A stretch of 64,000 nt of DNA from a virus (lineage: Duplodnaviria > Caudoviricetes), in IMG/VR virus record IMGVR_UViG_3300032038_000001, positions 186,396 through 250,395 of that record; one strand, written 5' to 3'. The notes beneath the pieces are model-generated. The model did not search any database. It was not told the DNA's origin and was given only the letters and a program-made list of their open reading frames with translations. A program made the translations under genes and the position numbers. Below are positions 4,898-64,000 of the stretch, piece after piece; the stretch's first letter is position 1, and each line of letters opens with the position of its first letter.

Positions 4898-5677
4898 TTA
4901 AAATGCATCTATTAATATTGATTTTTTCCGTTTATTATTGTTATCTGTAAGAGCTCTTCTTTCAGACTTGTCTTTTGAATCTGCAACTACTTTTGCTGTC
5001 AATAAGTTCAATGCGGCTGTACCAAAACTATCTTTTTGTGCTTTACTAGCTTTTTGACCAGTTGCTTTAATAGCAGTATCCTGTTTTTTAATATGTTCAG
5101 CCATTGTACTCATTTTTTTATTAAACTGCTCTCTATCATTTTCATATGTTTTCTTTTGTTTTTCTAATGTTTCAACGGTTTGTCCAACTTTTCTTCCTAA
5201 TTTTTTTAAAGTTTCTCTTGTACTTTTAACCGCATCATTCAACTGATCAAGTTGTCCGTTTGGACCATCTATTTTACTTAATCTACTATTTAATCTTTTA
5301 GTTCTAGACTCTAGATCATCAACGCGAGACTTAGTATCCTTTTGTGAATCGTTCAATTTATTCGTAGCTTTTGTTAATTGAGTAACTCTTCTTTTTAAGT
5401 CTTCGTTGTCATGTTTAAGACCATTTAATGTATCTTTGAGATCATTTACTTGTTGTTCATACATTTTTTTATTAGCATAATTATTAGCTAACCATATTCC
5501 TAAACCAATACATGCTAAACATAAAACAATGGCTTTTTTAATCATTTTTTGTGTTTGTTTACTATCATTAATTGTTTTTTTTGCTTCATCTATATGCTGT
5601 TTTCTTGTATTGGAAGTACTCTGATTTTGAACCTCCTCAACCATGTAATCAAGATATAAATCTAAATAATCATTCAT
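4898..5677 (-). CDS. Coiled-coil protein with one hydrophobic segment and N-terminal MNDYLDLYLDYMVEE tag; candidate internal/ejected virion protein
   Basis: RBS GAAAGGA. Hydrophobic segment IVLCLACIGLGIWLA followed by a long heptad region. Confidence 0.6.
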   Translation of the reverse strand: MNDYLDLYLDYMVEEVQNQSTSNTRKQHIDEAKKTINDSKQTQKMIKKAIVLCLACIGLGIWLANNYANKKMYEQQVNDLKDTLNGLKHDNEDLKRRVTQLTKATNKLNDSQKDTKSRVDDLESRTKRLNSRLSKIDGPNGQLDQLNDAVKSTRETLKKLGRKVGQTVETLEKQKKTYENDREQFNKKMSTMAEHIKKQDTAIKATGQKASKAQKDSFGTAALNLLTAKVVADSKDKSERRALTDNNNKRKKSILIDAF

Positions 5678-6461
5678 ATCTTTATCTTCCTTTCTATTTT
5701 TTATCCTGGCATTCTATCAATTTTATTTTCTAATTTTACTGTTTCTTGTCTTAATTTAAAACAATTCTTCAGAATTTTTTTGCGACACAGATTCAGTTCC
5801 TTTGCAGGATCACCACTTTTTGATGCTTTAACTATTATACTAGTAATTTCTTTTATTGCTAATATTGCAAATGGTGCTGCTAAGGCAATCTTTTCTCGTG
5901 TTCTATTACCATTCCTATATTTTTCATAAGAATCTTTCCAATCATTTTGAGCTTTATAATAATATTCCGATTCATCGCCATATAACTTTCTAGCTTGATC
6001 TAAAGTTTCATGTTTGGATCTAACGTCCCCACCAAATATTTTTTCATCAGCTTTTGAAAGTTTGTCTGAATACTTGTTTCCAAGTTTAGTTTCTTCGAGG
6101 AAAGCAGTTACTCCTGCAACCACTGCCAGAACTTTAAATGCATCAATAAGTCCTTTTTTCAGTTGGCTCATTACCACACTTAATGTGCTAATATCCATGG
6201 TATTTACAATTTTTATCACGTCATCTATGTTCTGTTTAGCATATTTAACTTCGTTAATAGCCTCTTTTTTCTTTTTATGTTTTAATGCCACTTTTGCATG
6301 ACCCATATGTTCTTTATATTCATTTAAATTTTTCTTATATAATGCAATCATTTCACGATTAGCAGGTTTTTTTACCTTTTCAGGTTTTTTACTACTCTTA
6401 TCTTTTTCACTGCTCTCCTCAACAATGTAATCAAGATATAAATCTAAATAATCATTCATAT
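5633..6461. repeat. 47-bp direct repeat (5633-5679 and 6415-6461, one mismatch) encoding MNDYLDLYLDY(M/I)VEE
   Basis: 37 bp are identical (atgtaatcaagatataaatctaaataatcattcatat), plus ctcctcaac on the left. Confidence 0.9.
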
Positions 6462-12146: not shown

Positions 12147-12263
12147 TTTTATTCACAACCTTTCATCTTAACTATCTTTTTATTGGCATTACATACTTAT
12201 TTTTTTGTTTATTATTTAATTATATTTTATCCGTAGAGGTATACGAATAATAAACAAAAAATT

Positions 12264-12299
12264 AAGATGACGTTAGGAATTTCTTCCTAACGTCATCTT
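12264..12299 (-). terminator. Intrinsic terminator/hairpin
   Basis: AAGATGACGTTAGGAA/TTCCTAACGTCATCTT inverted repeat, with a U run on the minus strand. Confidence 0.65.
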
Positions 12300-12337
12300 T
12301 ATGCAAAAGAGAGTGATTCCCTCTCAAAGGGACATTA

Positions 12338-12817
12338 TTAATCAGTTCCCCATGAACCGAATTGCGATGATCCGCCACCGTTTTCATGGTTCTTGTTCTT
12401 CTTTCTACCGCCAAGCTTGCTTGACTTAACGGCAACATTACGTACTTTCTTGTACGCTTTCTTACTGTTCTTTAAAGCAACCGATGTACCTGAGAACAGC
12501 TCTGCTGCATCATCGGCTCCAATTGCGACCGACATAAATTTTGCCTGGTCGATGACCTTATTGATATCATCGAATATCTTTGTTAGGTCGTCATCCTTGT
12601 ACGGTGACGCACTAAACTTAGCACCACACATTGTGCAGGTACAAGTTCCATCACCTGCATTATAAATTGTAGGCTTCTTCTTACCCTTTTTGTTGAAACG
12701 CCAGTGTTCACACTTAGCTTTCAACTCTTTGGTTTCTTTCTTATTCTTTCCCTTGAGTTTTCCCTTTTTTGTCACGTTAGCTGATATCAGCCTTAAAGTG
12801 CTTTCTTTCTTTGCCAT
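12338..12817 (-). CDS. Small basic protein with possible Zn site (CEH...CTCTMC); early gene
   Basis: Lys-rich 159 aa; RBS GAAAGGA; early motif upstream. Confidence 0.6.
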   Translation of the reverse strand: MAKKESTLRLISANVTKKGKLKGKNKKETKELKAKCEHWRFNKKGKKKPTIYNAGDGTCTCTMCGAKFSASPYKDDDLTKIFDDINKVIDQAKFMSVAIGADDAAELFSGTSVALKNSKKAYKKVRNVAVKSSKLGGRKKNKNHENGGGSSQFGSWGTD

Positions 12818-14086: not shown

Positions 14087-15034
14087 TTAACTAAGGTACT
14101 TTTTATTTACCTCTGATTCAGATACCTTTTTCTGAACCATTTTGAAGATTCTCGGGTAATCTGTTTCAGACAGACTTGTCAGAGAATATCTTCTGGGTGA
14201 GTCTTTACCCTTAGACTCATCTATCTTTCGAGCCTGAATAATAGTATCCAGAACTCTCTCAATAGAATCTCTATCGAGAGACTCTAATGTATCGAAACAC
14301 CAATTTGATACGCTAAGGTAAAATGCCTTCTGATTATCGGTCAGATGGCCAAACACTTCCTTTCTCTCACAAAGGAAGAACTTTATGAATGGAGCGTACC
14401 ACTCCTTGTCAACCAGAAGGTTCATGATTTCAGCAAAAGGTATAACCTTTGCCTTCGAATGTTCGTACAGGACCTTCTCGAAACTTGCTATCCTGAAGTT
14501 GTAAGACTTTTCAAGACAGCTGTCTGTCGGTATTATCGACAGAACGTCGAAAGCGATGTTTTCATCAATTCCTGCTTTCGTAAACTTCTTGATTTTCTTA
14601 CTCAGAATCATCTGTCCGAGTTCTATCAAGTCATTACCTGTATACACAGTAGCGTTTGGATTCTCGGCAAGAATCTGTGCATTCTGGGAGTTAATTGTCT
14701 CAATCATCTCGCCAATTATAATCGGGAACAACTTGATATTTTTTATCTTATTCCCTCGCTTAAGTTCTTTCTTTACAGACTTTATAAAGTCTTCGTTGCA
14801 GAACTTATTAAGAACAGCATTGTAAATTTCAGGCTCCTCACGCTTAATGAGATAGCCATATTTTACCATCGCTTCAATTACTTCAGGAAGCATATCCACG
14901 AGGTAAAGGTTGAATGACTTCATAGCCTCTTTCTTACTATCAAAGTCATTATGCTTCTTGTACTTCTTATAAGAAGCTTTGGCGAATTCTTTTACCTCAC
15001 TAGGTACTTTAAACTTGTTCTTGTTTTCCGACAT
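14087..15034 (-). CDS. Hypothetical alpha-helical protein; early gene
   Basis: 315-aa ORF, RBS GAAAGGAG, early motif at 15146-15156. Confidence 0.7.
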   Translation of the reverse strand: MSENKNKFKVPSEVKEFAKASYKKYKKHNDFDSKKEAMKSFNLYLVDMLPEVIEAMVKYGYLIKREEPEIYNAVLNKFCNEDFIKSVKKELKRGNKIKNIKLFPIIIGEMIETINSQNAQILAENPNATVYTGNDLIELGQMILSKKIKKFTKAGIDENIAFDVLSIIPTDSCLEKSYNFRIASFEKVLYEHSKAKVIPFAEIMNLLVDKEWYAPFIKFFLCERKEVFGHLTDNQKAFYLSVSNWCFDTLESLDRDSIERVLDTIIQARKIDESKGKDSPRRYSLTSLSETDYPRIFKMVQKKVSESEVNKKYLS

Positions 15035-29935: not shown

Positions 29936-30080
29936 TCCTTTCTATGGTAATATTTTCTTACTATGAAATAATATATAAACTAATAGAAAATATTAAATGA
30001 GAGTTTGATTCAAGTTTATTTTTAATTTTTATAACATAGAAATAAAACTGAAAGAAATTTATTATTCGTCGGATTCCTTA

Positions 30081-30122
30081 AAAAAATGAAGTTGTACATT
30101 TTTTTGTACAACTTCATTTTTT
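30081..30122 (-). terminator. Intrinsic terminator
   Basis: AAAAAATGAAGTTGTACA/TGTACAACTTCATTTTTT. Confidence 0.7.
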
Positions 30123-33485: not shown

Positions 33486-33644
33486 ATGAATAATGATTGT
33501 CTCAATAACTATGATGATTCAGAAATTGAATCATATTTCGGAGAATCAGATGATTCTATTAAAAAATGTAATAAATGTCCTCATCTTATATATGAAAATG
33601 GAACAATAACATGCGACAAAATTATAGAAAAGGAAGATCAATAA
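33486..33644 (+). CDS. Small Cys-containing protein
   Basis: ATG 33486 after RBS AAGGGGG; CNKC...TCD; TAATG coupling to the next gene. Confidence 0.5.
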   Translation: MNNDCLNNYDDSEIESYFGESDDSIKKCNKCPHLIYENGTITCDKIIEKEDQ

Positions 33645-34900
33645 TGATTGTACAGAATGTAGAAATGTCAAATATTGACAAATTGTATGAAGCTATTGCA
33701 ATAGGTAAGCATAATCCAGATTATGATAAAAAAATATATGATAATATTAATAAATTACTATCTCATACCACTATAACTTTTTTCATTGATGACTTGACTT
33801 TATTTGAAGAGTTTATCATGAAAGTCTTTACAAACTCGGAAATTATTCCAGTAGCGACATTTTATGACAATGAAGCATTAGGTGATAAATATAAACAAGT
33901 TATAGATAACATTTTAACGTTATCTGACAGTATTAATCGTGATGCCGATATAAAATATTCAATTGGTCAATACTTCCTAACGGCTGGCTGTATAACTAAG
34001 AGAATTATTTTGTCGTTATCTGGTCCACAGTTATTCTCTATTTTTGGTATGATGCCTGATGTATTTTTTATGAAAACATTTGGATATCAATCAAACAGTG
34101 ATTTTTCTCATGAAATTCTCGATTATAAAGTTCTCGAGGATTCATTAATTACAAACTTTGTTAATAATTTTTATAGTTATTATCAGTCATATGTAAATAA
34201 AATTGATGCTGTTATTGATTCATACATTCATAGTAATTTCTATAGTTTTATCGATGATAAAAAAACTTCTGTAGCATTATCAGATGTTGTATCTCCTACG
34301 GGTTCAATATCGTTTTTTGGTGATAAAACCGATAATATACAGACAGATATGATGCACACATCTAGTGTATTTTTAGATGTAATAGATGATGTACGTGGTT
34401 TAATGTACAAATCAATAAATCTATATTTTGTTATAAATTGCAGTTTTTATGCGTTCCTAGAGATGTCTATAGCTCTTCCTAATGTATTTTTCATAGACCA
34501 TCAGGATATGAAACTTTTATTTAGAGAAGATGCTAAAATGATAATACCAGAAGGATTAGATAAATATAGTATGAGATTATCATCTAAACTTGGAGATATA
34601 AAAAAGATGAAAGATGAAGTATCTTCTAAACATGAAGCTAATCTCACAAGATATAAATTTATTCCATTAAATACATCAATTAAATTTAGTATGAAGATTT
34701 CTCTGAATGACATTTCTTCAACTTTATTGAAGTATGAAACAGCGATTAGAGATAATCATATTTATAATATGAATTCGGCTTTAAGTAACGAGATACTCTA
34801 TATAATTAATTCAATTAAATCAACATCAAAAAGTATTTATGATATATTATTATCATCATCGAAAGAACTTGAACGACGTGTATTTGATGATAATAACTAA
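33644..34900 (+). CDS. Hypothetical protein, possibly a tandem degenerate ThyX-like fold
   Basis: Start probably ATG 33644 (RBS AAGGA). HTTITFFI, QYFLTAGCIT, INLYFVINCS and RYKFIPLNTSIKFSM echo ThyX structural motifs; no RHR catalytic motif. Confidence 0.45.
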   Translation: MIVQNVEMSNIDKLYEAIAIGKHNPDYDKKIYDNINKLLSHTTITFFIDDLTLFEEFIMKVFTNSEIIPVATFYDNEALGDKYKQVIDNILTLSDSINRDADIKYSIGQYFLTAGCITKRIILSLSGPQLFSIFGMMPDVFFMKTFGYQSNSDFSHEILDYKVLEDSLITNFVNNFYSYYQSYVNKIDAVIDSYIHSNFYSFIDDKKTSVALSDVVSPTGSISFFGDKTDNIQTDMMHTSSVFLDVIDDVRGLMYKSINLYFVINCSFYAFLEMSIALPNVFFIDHQDMKLLFREDAKMIIPEGLDKYSMRLSSKLGDIKKMKDEVSSKHEANLTRYKFIPLNTSIKFSMKISLNDISSTLLKYETAIRDNHIYNMNSALSNEILYIINSIKSTSKSIYDILLSSSKELERRVFDDNN

Positions 34901-34901
34901 G

Positions 34902-34941
34902 AAATGGGTCTATAGAATTAAAAATCTATAGACCCATTTTT
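34902..34941 (+). terminator. Intrinsic terminator
   Basis: AAATGGGTCTATAGA/TCTATAGACCCATTT followed by T residues. Confidence 0.75.
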
Positions 34942-34969
34942 AATATATTTTTTATACTAATATACGTAG

Positions 34970-35010
34970 AAAAAATTGACTATTACGTATTTTATACGTA
35001 ATAGTCAATT
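34970..35010 (-). terminator. Minus-strand intrinsic terminator with no upstream ORF
   Basis: 17-bp stem AATTGACTATTACGTAT/ATACGTAATAGTCAATT; the U run exists only on the minus strand. Confidence 0.65.
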
Positions 35011-35063
35011 GATTTGGATAATATTCTGAAAGGAGACTAGAACTAGAATGTGAATTCATCTTT
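34970..35063 (-). ncRNA. Putative ~90-nt late sRNA with anti-Shine-Dalgarno segment (CUCCUUUCAGAAUAU)
   Basis: Late promoter motif at 35063-35074, terminator at 34970-35010 and no ORF in between. Confidence 0.4.
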
Positions 35064-35074
35064 ATTTAAATGTT
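35063..35074 (-). promoter_or_regulatory. Late promoter motif (AACATTTAAATA), orphan
   Basis: Exact AACA-N6-TA; no protein gene downstream. Confidence 0.45.
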
Positions 35075-35139
35075 ATGAAAGATAACTAATAAATTAAGTC
35101 ATCATTTATATATGAATTATCATTTTTAAGTTATTCAAG

Positions 35140-35295
35140 GTTTTCCTTTTTTCTCTTTCTTATCCTATTTATTTTTTTATCTTTCTCTTTTTTTTATTTT
35201 TCTCTTTCTTCCTTTTTCTTCTCTTTTTTTTTATTTTTTTATCCCCCATTTGTGGGCTCGCTTTTCGCTCCCCCAGCCGGTAGGGGTTCCCCCTT
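35140..35295 (-). other. G-cluster hairpins plus ~105-nt polypurine tract; candidate R-loop origin or structured RNA
   Basis: Plus strand 35141-35246 has no G and is almost all T/C. 35243-35293 is a conspicuous GC-rich island (GGGGG, GGGGG, GGGG on the minus strand). Confidence 0.4.
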
Positions 35296-35306
35296 AATAG
35301 AATGTT
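35295..35306 (-). promoter_or_regulatory. Late promoter motif (AACATTCTATTA) abutting the GC-rich element
   Basis: Exact AACA-N6-TA; predicted +1 falls at the first base of AAGGGGGAACCCCU. Confidence 0.55.
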
Positions 35307-35339
35307 ATAGAAAAATAAAATTTAATTTTTAACTTCAAT

Positions 35340-35357
35340 TTATACATCATATTTAAG
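35340..35357 (+). promoter_or_regulatory. Putative early promoter (TTATACATCATATTTAAG)
   Basis: Shares TYATAYATYAT and ATTTAAG with 12879-12896 and 46990-47007. Confidence 0.5.
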
Positions 35358-35408
35358 ATAAAGTATATTTCATATATTTTATATATTTAAATTATGGAGG
35401 TTTTAAAA

Positions 35409-35843
35409 ATGTCAAAAGCTAAGAAAAAGAAGGAAAGTAAGAAGCCGATATCAATTATAAATGAGGTTGATAAGACTTTGAATATGACATACGATGCCAT
35501 TATGTCAGAAATTGAAGAGCTTCAGTTGGAACTTTATCTTGCTGAAGAGAAAGCTCGAAAGAAGGCAAGAAAGAAGATAAAGAAAGATCCTTATTATTTT
35601 GATAACTCTCTTGAACGAATAGAAGCTCGAAAGGAAGTGATTCAGAGAATAGAAGGAACTAATCTTCTTGATAGGATAGAAAATATTTTCAAGGACATAT
35701 GTCCTATTGTAATTATCATAGCAAGATTAATTGCTTCGTTAATTCTTGCTATTTTATCATTTGAACCAGTTAAGGTTCATATTAAACCTGAGACACTTCT
35801 AAAGTTACAGAATGTTTATCAGAGCTCGTTAAGTATAAAATAA
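35409..35843 (+). CDS. Hypothetical protein with C-terminal hydrophobic helix
   Basis: Start MSKAK after RBS GGAGG; IVIIIARLIASLILAILSF. Confidence 0.6.
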   Translation: MSKAKKKKESKKPISIINEVDKTLNMTYDAIMSEIEELQLELYLAEEKARKKARKKIKKDPYYFDNSLERIEARKEVIQRIEGTNLLDRIENIFKDICPIVIIIARLIASLILAILSFEPVKVHIKPETLLKLQNVYQSSLSIK

Positions 35844-62848: not shown

Positions 62849-63916
62849 TTGAAAGCTATTTACACAGTATTGAATAATAAAGTTTATCGTATCATGCAAA
62901 ATGTTTGGGCACCAGTTTCTGATGTTGAACGTATTAATGAAAATACCATATCTGTAAAAACAGATGTATATCAAAAAATATTAAATACACAAATATATTT
63001 AACTGACTGGTCATCTGTTGATGCATTGTCAAATAAGGAAAAGGCTGATGCTTTCTTAAAATTCTTAAAAGATGAGCAAATAAAAGAAGTAAATCCATTA
63101 ATTGATAGATTTACAGTATCAGTTGATTATTCTCTTTATAATAAGGATATGCAACGAGAATACGAACATTCTGTTGTAATTAAACCTTTAAAAACACGTG
63201 ATTTTGTTTTTCCTCTTGGAATAAATGAAAATAATGAATGTGTTTATAGAAGGTTTAAACATCTTACTGGTGACCTTGATTGGATTATAACTGACAGGAT
63301 GCCATATGGAATCATGTGTCACAAAAATAGAAAGCATATCATAAAAATAAATGATATTTGCATTTATCAGGATAAATTCGAAGAATCTGATGATGACGTT
63401 CATAATTCAATCTATTCGCAATCATATAATTGTAATTCATGTACAATTAATACGCTATTAGATAATAAGGTTCTCGTATACTCTTCGAAAGTTGCAGGAT
63501 ATGATTTTGCGCCTATTATAAATGAATTTAATCCGAGAATTATCAATTTGAATTTGGTAGTTGACTTAACAAATATTGTTGTAATGTATAATCATAAAGA
63601 CGTAGATGATATCATAACCGAAAATATAGCAACTGCACACGGGATTGATGAATCAGATGATTCTACAAGTTGTGAAAATAGTAATTCCAATTGTAATTGT
63701 AATTGCAATACAGATAGTAATAATTCTGATAGTTTTACTCCAACATATGTTTGGAGAAGAGGCACTGCAAGTGAGTCCCTCGCTTTAAAAGTTGTTGAAG
63801 ACCTTTATCCATCCGAACAGTTTAACTCTGAAACAATGGTTCATAAATCAGATGTTATTGGTGATATACCAGGTATTAATGTAGATGAATATGTTGTTAA
63901 AACACAAGTTACCTAA
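62849..63916 (+). CDS. Hypothetical protein
   Basis: 355 aa, TTG start with RBS AAAGGG. The C-terminal ALKVVEDL...VHKSDVIGDIPGINVDEYV resembles an insert in 17486..21568 (SLLVVDD...IHYSDVTSHISNVKVGDRV). Confidence 0.65.
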   Translation: MKAIYTVLNNKVYRIMQNVWAPVSDVERINENTISVKTDVYQKILNTQIYLTDWSSVDALSNKEKADAFLKFLKDEQIKEVNPLIDRFTVSVDYSLYNKDMQREYEHSVVIKPLKTRDFVFPLGINENNECVYRRFKHLTGDLDWIITDRMPYGIMCHKNRKHIIKINDICIYQDKFEESDDDVHNSIYSQSYNCNSCTINTLLDNKVLVYSSKVAGYDFAPIINEFNPRIINLNLVVDLTNIVVMYNHKDVDDIITENIATAHGIDESDDSTSCENSNSNCNCNCNTDSNNSDSFTPTYVWRRGTASESLALKVVEDLYPSEQFNSETMVHKSDVIGDIPGINVDEYVVKTQVT

Positions 63917-63917
63917 T

Positions 63918-63958
63918 AAAATAAGAGATATGGATTAAATCCATATCTCTTATTTTTT
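63918..63958. terminator. Bidirectional terminator
   Basis: AAAATAAGAGATATGGATT/AATCCATATCTCTTATTTT with A and T flanks. Confidence 0.75.
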
Positions 63959-63964
63959 TATTAT

Positions 63965-64000
63965 TTATTCATTATCACTAACAGGTTCTACATCAATGGT
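63965..64000 (-). CDS. 3' end of a convergent gene entering from the right edge
   Basis: ...TIDVEPVSDNE* ends just before the bidirectional terminator. Confidence 0.4.
   Translation of the reverse strand, partial: TIDVEPVSDNE

Follow-up and report, generated by a model that had tools for sequence, protein, structure and literature searches.

The minus strand of the window, by which we mean the whole 64,000-nt stretch of phage DNA analyzed here, carries a compact unit in which a late promoter motif and an intrinsic terminator bracket a segment that copies the anti-Shine-Dalgarno (anti-SD) end of 16S rRNA. This promoter-to-terminator unit, with its predicted exposed 16S-like anti-SD, is conserved in four related phages and is strongly supported by comparison of their sequences. 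The computations establish that the promoter belongs to a real class, that the unit is unique and syntenic, that the anti-SD seed is predicted to be accessible and that the terminator has the minus-strand orientation. A late small RNA (sRNA), discrete and driven by its own promoter, with an exposed 16S-like anti-SD is therefore likely to exist; the joint proposal, that the sRNA exists and that pairing with SD and leader sequences is its function, is more tentative and falls slightly short of an even prospect. A first-pass annotation of the window had presented the sRNA as a selective repressor of early genes. The structure of the unit is upheld by the four relatives, while the early-gene-selective function is unsupported.

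The window is the final 64 kb of a 250,395-bp IMG/VR phage record (G+C 31%), and the phage is an uncultured AR9-like giant phage of ~250 kb. It encodes two RNA polymerase (RNAP) beta-like genes, one of them within the 1422-aa ORF of the window. By this virion RNAP beta subunit the phage comes closest, among isolates, to Listeria phage LPJP1 (34%), to the Staphylococcus jumbo phages S6 and MarsHill (~32%) and to Yersinia phiR1-37; AR9 is absent from the top matches listed. Searches of GenBank phages returned no DNA match and no match for three flanking or nearby proteins, PHROGs and Pfam returned nothing for the flanking genes, and a tRNA/tmRNA scan of the window found none. The ends of the record (G000:C1:1-175 and 250221-250395, the latter being window 63826-64000) share ~175 bp with one mismatch, CCAGATATT versus CCAGGTATT, which suggests that the assembly is circularly permuted or terminally redundant and that these are not true ends.

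In Bacillus phage AR9, the mapped late promoters follow the consensus AACA-(6N)-TA/G, the last base being the transcription start, and the early promoters the consensus AAATATATATTAT-(6N)-G (PMC5312081). Antisense RNAs arise from seven of the AR9 late promoters, for the most part late in infection (Lavysh et al. 2017, PMC5312081). The phage of the window resembles AR9 in using both promoter classes, with the same late consensus, AACA-(6N)-TA/G, and the early consensus TATATATTAT. AACA-N6-TA occurs 219 times genome-wide, and 71 of the 219 copies fall in the intergenic 10% of the genome; ~55 of these 71 are co-oriented with a gene whose start mostly lies 25-40 nt downstream. The second motif, (T)TATATATTAT, of the AR9 early type, stands upstream of other genes. 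AACA-N6-TA is a working late-promoter class in this genome, and the late-promoter label given by the first-pass annotation holds. Nine or more small genes outside the window have in common a near-identical upstream element of ~100 nt (…attacataaaaaca…gtggtttctcggaactt…ctgtttaccacagtcaataaaacagagtat…aggaggta), at ~11.8-14.3, 89.5-91.3, 103.6 and 130.7-132.3 kb of the record (G000:C1), which is a multi-copy conserved leader or mobile cassette.

The features of the region, in window coordinates, are as follows.

34906..34935, plus strand: T1, the terminator of the upstream 429-aa gene (33611..34900).
34952..35059, minus strand: a 35-codon ATG ORF inside the predicted sRNA.
34970..35063, minus strand: the predicted sRNA, ~94 nt (88-94 by U-tract end point), from promoter to U-tract end.
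34970..35010, minus strand: T2, a 17-bp hairpin plus U6, intrinsic terminator (hairpin proper 34974-35010).
35028..35035, minus strand: the anti-SD core CUCCUUUC, predicted to be unpaired.
35028..35053, plus strand: leader-like GAAAGGAG, 12 nt and ATG-TGA (35048-35053), the basis of a rival reading.
35063..35074, minus strand: P2, the AR9-type late promoter motif AACATTTAAATA, with the predicted start at its last A, 35063.
35081..35103, minus strand: a weak hairpin of 7 bp (GAUGACU/AGUUAUC) separating the polypurine unit from P2.
35136..35306, minus strand: context unit 1 (late promoter, G-run core, polypurine tract), the upstream half of the arrangement.
35320-35393, plus strand: the putative early-promoter region of the 141-149-aa gene (L009:5880-5910 and L010 ~5885-5915 in two relatives).

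The minus-strand AACA-N6-TA from which the first-pass annotation started is present, and it has the AR9-type spacing, with AACA at -11..-8, TA/G at -1/+1 and exactly 6 nt between them. Scored with a late-promoter position weight matrix (PWM) trained on 43 gene-proximal promoters, P2 reaches 11.2 and ranks 58 of 219, between the coding median of 5.2 and the intergenic median of 12.9. Position -1 is T or C in all lineages, where the preferred base is A; P2 may accordingly be weak, a point against the proposed anti-leader sRNA. At the other end, the T2 hairpin (~-19.7 kcal/mol) contains just 4 G-C among its 17 pairs. A U6 tract follows it on the minus strand alone, as had been claimed; the plus strand reads on as GATTTGG with no U tract, and a terminator scan likewise assigns the hairpin to the minus strand. 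Counted from the predicted start at 35063, the U tract ends (34970) after 94 nt, in agreement with the earlier measurement. Both elements of the "orphan" promoter-terminator pair are thus in place, though the terminator probably also serves the transcript from the promoter at 35295-35306 and is to that extent not exclusive to P2. T1 terminates the 429-aa gene upstream, and T2 is therefore not needed by that gene.

The predicted sRNA folds with a minimum free energy (MFE) of -22.3 kcal/mol (z = -5.6), and the centroid structure consists of the terminator alone. The 15-mer CUCCUUUCAGAAUAU at 35021-35035 includes the anti-SD core and has 8 nt in common with what we take to be the Bacillota 16S 3' end, so that the likeness noted at first pass stands; by shuffling, an anti-SD 8-mer within 52 nt has p ~0.002. 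The span had also been described as free of ORFs. A 35-codon minus-strand ORF does exist and is not credible as a gene: it has no SD and a leader of 4 nt, it reads through the terminator to a stop past the U tract, it is absent in three of the relatives (L008, L009 and L010), and every difference inside it between the window and the fourth, L007, is non-synonymous. An Rfam 15 scan of 34700-35500 at a permissive threshold gave noise only, the best matches being unrelated eukaryotic families that miss their gathering scores, by 14 bits for the best of them and by at least 45 for most.

The predicted sRNA has no paralogues in the genome. Seven other orphan late-promoter-to-terminator units were found there, and as members of an anti-SD sRNA class they were rejected: their shuffle p values range from 0.023 to 0.79, none has a match above 6 nt, and only the focal unit is strong. 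Orphan AACA-N6-TA motifs with a terminator within 40-120 nt and no gene lie at window positions 30033-30120 (+) and 12253-12300 (+), and further ones at genome positions 51392 (-), 60537 (-), 109172 (+), 120130 (+), 138374 (-) and 174560 (-). These units are candidates for further small or antisense RNAs; several cross the terminator of a convergent gene in antisense or fall within a 3' UTR.

Four IMG/VR relatives (L007 to L010) share the synteny of the site, a gene of 403-429 aa, the intergenic region and a gene of 141-149 aa, with an upstream flanking protein ~29-94% identical to that of the window. In all four, the minus strand presents the same order of polypurine unit, hairpin, AACA-N6-TA, CTCCTTT(C/T) and long perfect hairpin, the distance from AACA-N6-TA to CTCCTTT(C/T) being ~28 nt, or 59 nt in L009. 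When the five genomes are aligned, T-CTCCTTT is the sole invariant block and the remaining flanks are unalignable; the window, L007 and L010 share the 15-mer CTCCTTTCAGAATAT without a change, with the remainder of the RNA unalignable. Although indels have occurred between AACAT and the TAAATAAAG downstream of it, 4/4 relatives keep the P2 motif, and the terminal hairpin occupies the same position with sequences that are unrelated between lineages. Those of L007 and L009 are stronger on the minus strand through G:U pairs. The predicted RNAs of the relatives measure ~85-135 nt, and the mean unpaired probability of the seed is 0.55-0.95 across the five homologues.

One relative is informative about the ownership of the hairpin. 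In L010, the sRNA hairpin is set apart from the upstream plus-strand gene by a 57-aa minus-strand gene and by another, strong terminator; the hairpin therefore belongs to the small RNA. The inserted gene (5263-5436, minus, of 3300036769_000355) is GC-richer, lies between that hairpin and the upstream 407-aa gene and looks like a moron-type insertion; the strong terminator beside it, at ~5225-5262, is bidirectional.

The combination of promoter and seed is also rare. A strict pattern of AACA-N6-TA, 15-70 nt and CTCCTTT has a single match in the 250-kb genome of the window and a single one in each of G001, G002 and G004, where it lies at the syntenic position; G003 has three matches, one of them syntenic, and the reversed-pattern control in G004 gave one match as well. 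A longer-seed scan of all IMG/VR returned just two extra matches, in seemingly coding stretches of other contigs, which are without the other features of the unit and look like chance. Pattern searches for an analogous unit in AR9, Listeria phage LPJP1 and Staphylococcus phage S6 found none, which counts against the anti-leader proposal. Relatives at 21% identity do not have the intergenic region, and a metagenome scan for more lineages yielded duplicates and one contig that ends before the element. The RNA is so far confined to a small uncultured clade of AR9-like phages. We consider the sRNA likely to be real because the unit is unique in its genome, is syntenic in 4/4 relatives despite diverged surroundings, and carries in each lineage its own, differing hairpin.

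Read on the plus strand, the same segment resembles a translation leader, and this underlies the strongest of the rival explanations. In all lineages an SD is followed by an ATG at an interval of 12-18 nt, counted from the first A of AAGGAG, a conserved spacing that is unlikely to arise by chance (~4e-4 for four lineages, a rough estimate for a feature chosen post hoc). It could be that GAAAGGAG-ATG is the real start of a micro-ORF or small hydrophobic peptide and that the minus-strand RNA is its dedicated repressor, the two sharing a terminator in the geometry of P22 sar/ant or of a type I toxin-antitoxin pair, with the ORF of the window lineage decayed to ATG-TGA. Such a cis-antisense pair would account for the leader-like spacing and for the placement of P2 within or just past the ORF starts, which makes the RNA perfectly complementary to SD and AUG, and candidate peptides are present in L009 (35 aa) and L008 (59 aa, hydrophobic). 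The plus-strand ORFs of the five lineages, however, are 1, 1, 9, 59 and 35 codons long and share no peptide, nor anything beyond the constraint of the promoter motif; the nine-codon ORF is that of L010, and in the window, beside ATG-TGA, a GTG at 35050 starts a frame of 11 codons. Between the window and its 94% relative L007 the frame is shifted by a 1-nt indel, the L008 ORF owes its open frame mainly to a polypyrimidine tract without stops, and the 15-mer is perfectly kept in the window and L010, both without a usable ORF.

In every lineage the plus strand lacks an early or late promoter ahead of the leader-like element (early-PWM scores 0.4-10.9; the training median is 20.7), and immediately upstream of this element stand one or two terminators. 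A sigma-70-like match inside the palindrome was considered as a plus-strand promoter and set aside, as it is not conserved in L008, L009 or L010. In L009 and L010, the downstream 141-149-aa gene is preceded by an early promoter of its own (PWM 18.6 and 23.3), and plus-strand read-through across the region is therefore not required; in the window and L007 this match is degenerate (8.7-9.9), and in the window the region lies back-to-back with the minus-strand late promoter at 35295-35306. The conserved and expressed sense ORF that a type I or sar-like pair calls for is thus not seen, and we judge the cis-antisense explanation unlikely. The scenario that the first-pass annotation had named as its own refutation, a translated plus-strand micro-ORF, is weakened because there is no plus-strand promoter, the ORF length runs from 1 to 59 codons and the 1-nt indel shifts the frame. 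The SD-ATG arrangement itself fits a real initiation site and an RNA selected as a generic SD-to-AUG complement equally well, and to this extent it also tells against the anti-leader sRNA.

The P2 unit lies directly downstream of unit 1 on the minus strand, and a second rival explanation would let unit 1 account for the whole region. Unit 1 has its promoter, AACATTCTATTA, at 35295-35306, a GC-rich core at 35241-35294 with three G5 runs, and a polypurine tract of ~110 nt at 35136-35250. A basic peptide ORF in the polypurine tract was rejected, as its frame changes between the two genomic copies of the unit. In the window, a ~326-nt transcript from 35295-35306 probably shares the T2 terminator, because only the weak 7-bp hairpin at 35081..35103 stands before T2. 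This hairpin is the counterpart of clear unit-separating terminators in L008, L009 and L010, and between the window and L007 it differs by two one-sided changes, with pairing kept only via minus-strand G:U (by inspection).

If P2 were weak or silent, there would be no separate sRNA of consequence: T2 would end the ~326-nt transcript and the CUCCUUUC segment would lie in its 3' region, where it might, for instance, fold back onto the purine tract. This would agree with the missing A at -1 of P2, with the fact that neither the window nor L007 has a strong terminator from 35295 to 35010, and with the MFE fold of the long RNA, where a portion of the 3' region is base-paired to the purine tract. 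It is at odds with the clear terminator immediately before P2 in L008, L009 and L010 and with the preservation of the P2 motif through indels. It is also at odds with the second genomic copy of unit 1 (63,348-63,580, plus strand, with promoter, core and tract at 63,348-63,536; 93% identity over the best 161-nt BLAST segment), which has its own terminator at once after it and no sRNA unit. Moreover, pairing of the seed with unit 1 RNA is no better than shuffled in five lineages (p 0.24-0.78), a result that also led us to discard the sRNA as a sponge partner of the polypurine RNA. We regard the ~326-nt transcript as a rather improbable explanation of the site. The complete relative G003 likewise has two unit 1 copies (G003:C1:71922-71963 and 208466-208508) with an sRNA unit beside one only. 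In the genome of the window (G000), each copy lies 1-2 kb from one of the two largest divergent strand switches, and the cumulative GC skew has its global minimum at ~220 kb, a skew confounded by gene orientation.

The separate anti-SD sRNA remains the preferred reading, and its possible targets were assessed across the leaders of the genome. The leader consensus of the phage is (G)AAAGGAG(G) in an A/T context, and in every lineage the sRNA segment is such a generic leader (AU-rich, UGAAAGGAGA, 6-12 nt, AUG) in reverse complement. The plus-strand 15-mer, with at most 2 mismatches, is a common leader in all four relatives, and the seed is thus complementary to the clade-wide generic leader consensus. 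The first-pass annotation had singled out two early genes by pairing beyond the SD, and both pairings exist, one of 15 nt (one G:U) with the leader of 14087..15034 and one of 12 nt with the leader of 12338..12817. As a control, we fixed the 8-nt core, shuffled the flanks and recorded the longest contiguous pairing over 244 leaders; contiguous-run statistics were preferred, as whole-TIR duplex folding gave inflated, scattered helices. The shuffled maximum was 14.2 +/- 1.45 nt, and 35% of the controls reached at least 15 nt, so that the extended pairings do not exceed chance. Counts of leaders with runs of at least 10, 11 or 12 nt were likewise unremarkable against the flank shuffles, and duplex energies did not differ between leaders with early (n=15) and late (n=45) promoters (Mann-Whitney p=0.25).

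The gene-specific evidence is mixed. The 12338..12817 gene (minus strand, 159 aa, family unassigned) has an early-type promoter, as its designation as an early gene would have it; 14087..15034 has no recognisable early promoter, and its ortholog in the L008 genome makes only ~6 bp with L008's own RNA (hand alignment). Among 75 orthogroups of G000, G002 and G003, all complete or near-complete, only 12338..12817 pairs with the cognate RNA over at least 12 contiguous nt in every genome, a result reached by 0/5 non-cognate permutations, and in G002 and G003 the pairing spans the SD, the spacer and the start-codon region. Its similarity ranks are nevertheless 1, 13 and 14, the latter two in G002 and G003, and our own rank-product estimate is ~p=0.1 after multiple testing; this gene is the best candidate for a specific target, and weakly suggestive as such. 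No specific target proved both conserved and beyond chance. Selective late repression of early genes, and of 14087..15034 and 12338..12817 in particular, is consequently very unlikely, given a seed that complements the generic leader, the 35% of shuffles that equal the observed maximum, the equivalence of early and late leaders and the ~6 bp of the 14087 ortholog.

The last alternative, that the plus-strand element is an SD-type 5' stabiliser or ribosome-loading site beside an incidental minus-strand promoter match, is hardly credible: the hairpin followed by GAAAGGAG does resemble the known 5' stabilisers of Bacillus, such as cryIIIA STAB-SD and the SP82 polypurine stabiliser, but the plus strand shows neither a promoter nor a known processing site, in L009 and L010 the downstream gene comes with an early promoter of its own, and the minus-strand AACA-N6-TA kept through indels in four lineages would be left unexplained.

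In the mechanism that we favor for the anti-SD sRNA, the non-virion RNA polymerase (nvRNAP) of the phage would transcribe the ~94-nt non-coding RNA from the minus strand, starting at 35063, and transcription would end at the RNA's own intrinsic terminator, 34970-35010. The RNA would be made late, as its promoter class suggests. Its only conserved single-stranded sequence would be UCUCCUUU(C), the copy of the 16S rRNA 3' end, and by base-pairing with SD and start regions this sequence could block binding of the 30S subunit. From the generic nature of the seed complement, we infer that the RNA would act broadly as an anti-leader RNA, not on particular early genes. Several observations sit uneasily with such a function: the extended targets are not enriched over shuffles, early and late leaders behave alike, no target is clearly conserved, and late phage mRNAs would be struck too, which makes the benefit doubtful. 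A more far-reaching version, in which a late and abundant mimic of the 16S 3' end competes with ribosomes for SDs genome-wide, possibly coordinated with the adjoining unit 1, is improbable, and the genome lacks a phage bS21 gene that might have offered a link to anti-SD biology.

The predicted sRNA has parallels among characterized regulators. P22 sar and lambda OOP are RNAs of ~70-90 nt, each complementary to a ribosome-binding site, with a promoter that faces the SD/AUG and a hairpin end shared with convergent transcription. The predicted sRNA is like them in its size, in the promoter facing SD/AUG, in its hairpin end and in its complementarity to a ribosome-binding site; the sar target ant, however, is a real and well-transcribed gene, whereas the sense strand here has no promoter or conserved ORF. 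In the Bacillota regulators RsaE/RoxS, RNAIII, FsrA and SR1, an unpaired pyrimidine-rich seed pairs with the SD and blocks initiation, and the predicted sRNA appears analogous in its unpaired, pyrimidine-rich, SD-complementary seed. The seeds of these regulators are C-rich (UCCC), usually lie in loops, are host-encoded and serve defined regulons; the seed described here, in contrast, is an 8-nt copy of the 16S 3' end that fits the generic leader. Type I antitoxins (SymR, Sib, RatA and SR4) are antisense RNAs over the SD or start of a short hydrophobic ORF, and the plus-strand ORFs of L008 and L009 superficially resemble the corresponding toxins. Unlike type I pairs, the unit has no toxin ORF in the window, L007 or L010, and there is no toxin promoter and no homology.

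For the AR9/PBS1 group, we found no small RNAs in the literature, and the text of the AR9 transcriptome paper mentions none (PMC5312081), in contrast to the sRNA predicted here. Regulatory RNAs are almost unknown for jumbo phages that encode their own multisubunit RNA polymerases. The AR9-type promoter grammar proves valid in a distant uncultured lineage and can be used for finding non-coding units. Should the unit be merely the remnant of a cis-antisense pair, its interest would be modest. The predicted sRNA is, moreover, a defined, short and synthesisable object that is testable in Bacillus extracts. If the 16S-mimic reading is true, it would provide an RNA-based global brake on, or re-programming of, translation initiation late in infection. 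If true, a clade-conserved, nvRNAP-driven anti-SD sRNA would represent a new way for phages to act on translation initiation.
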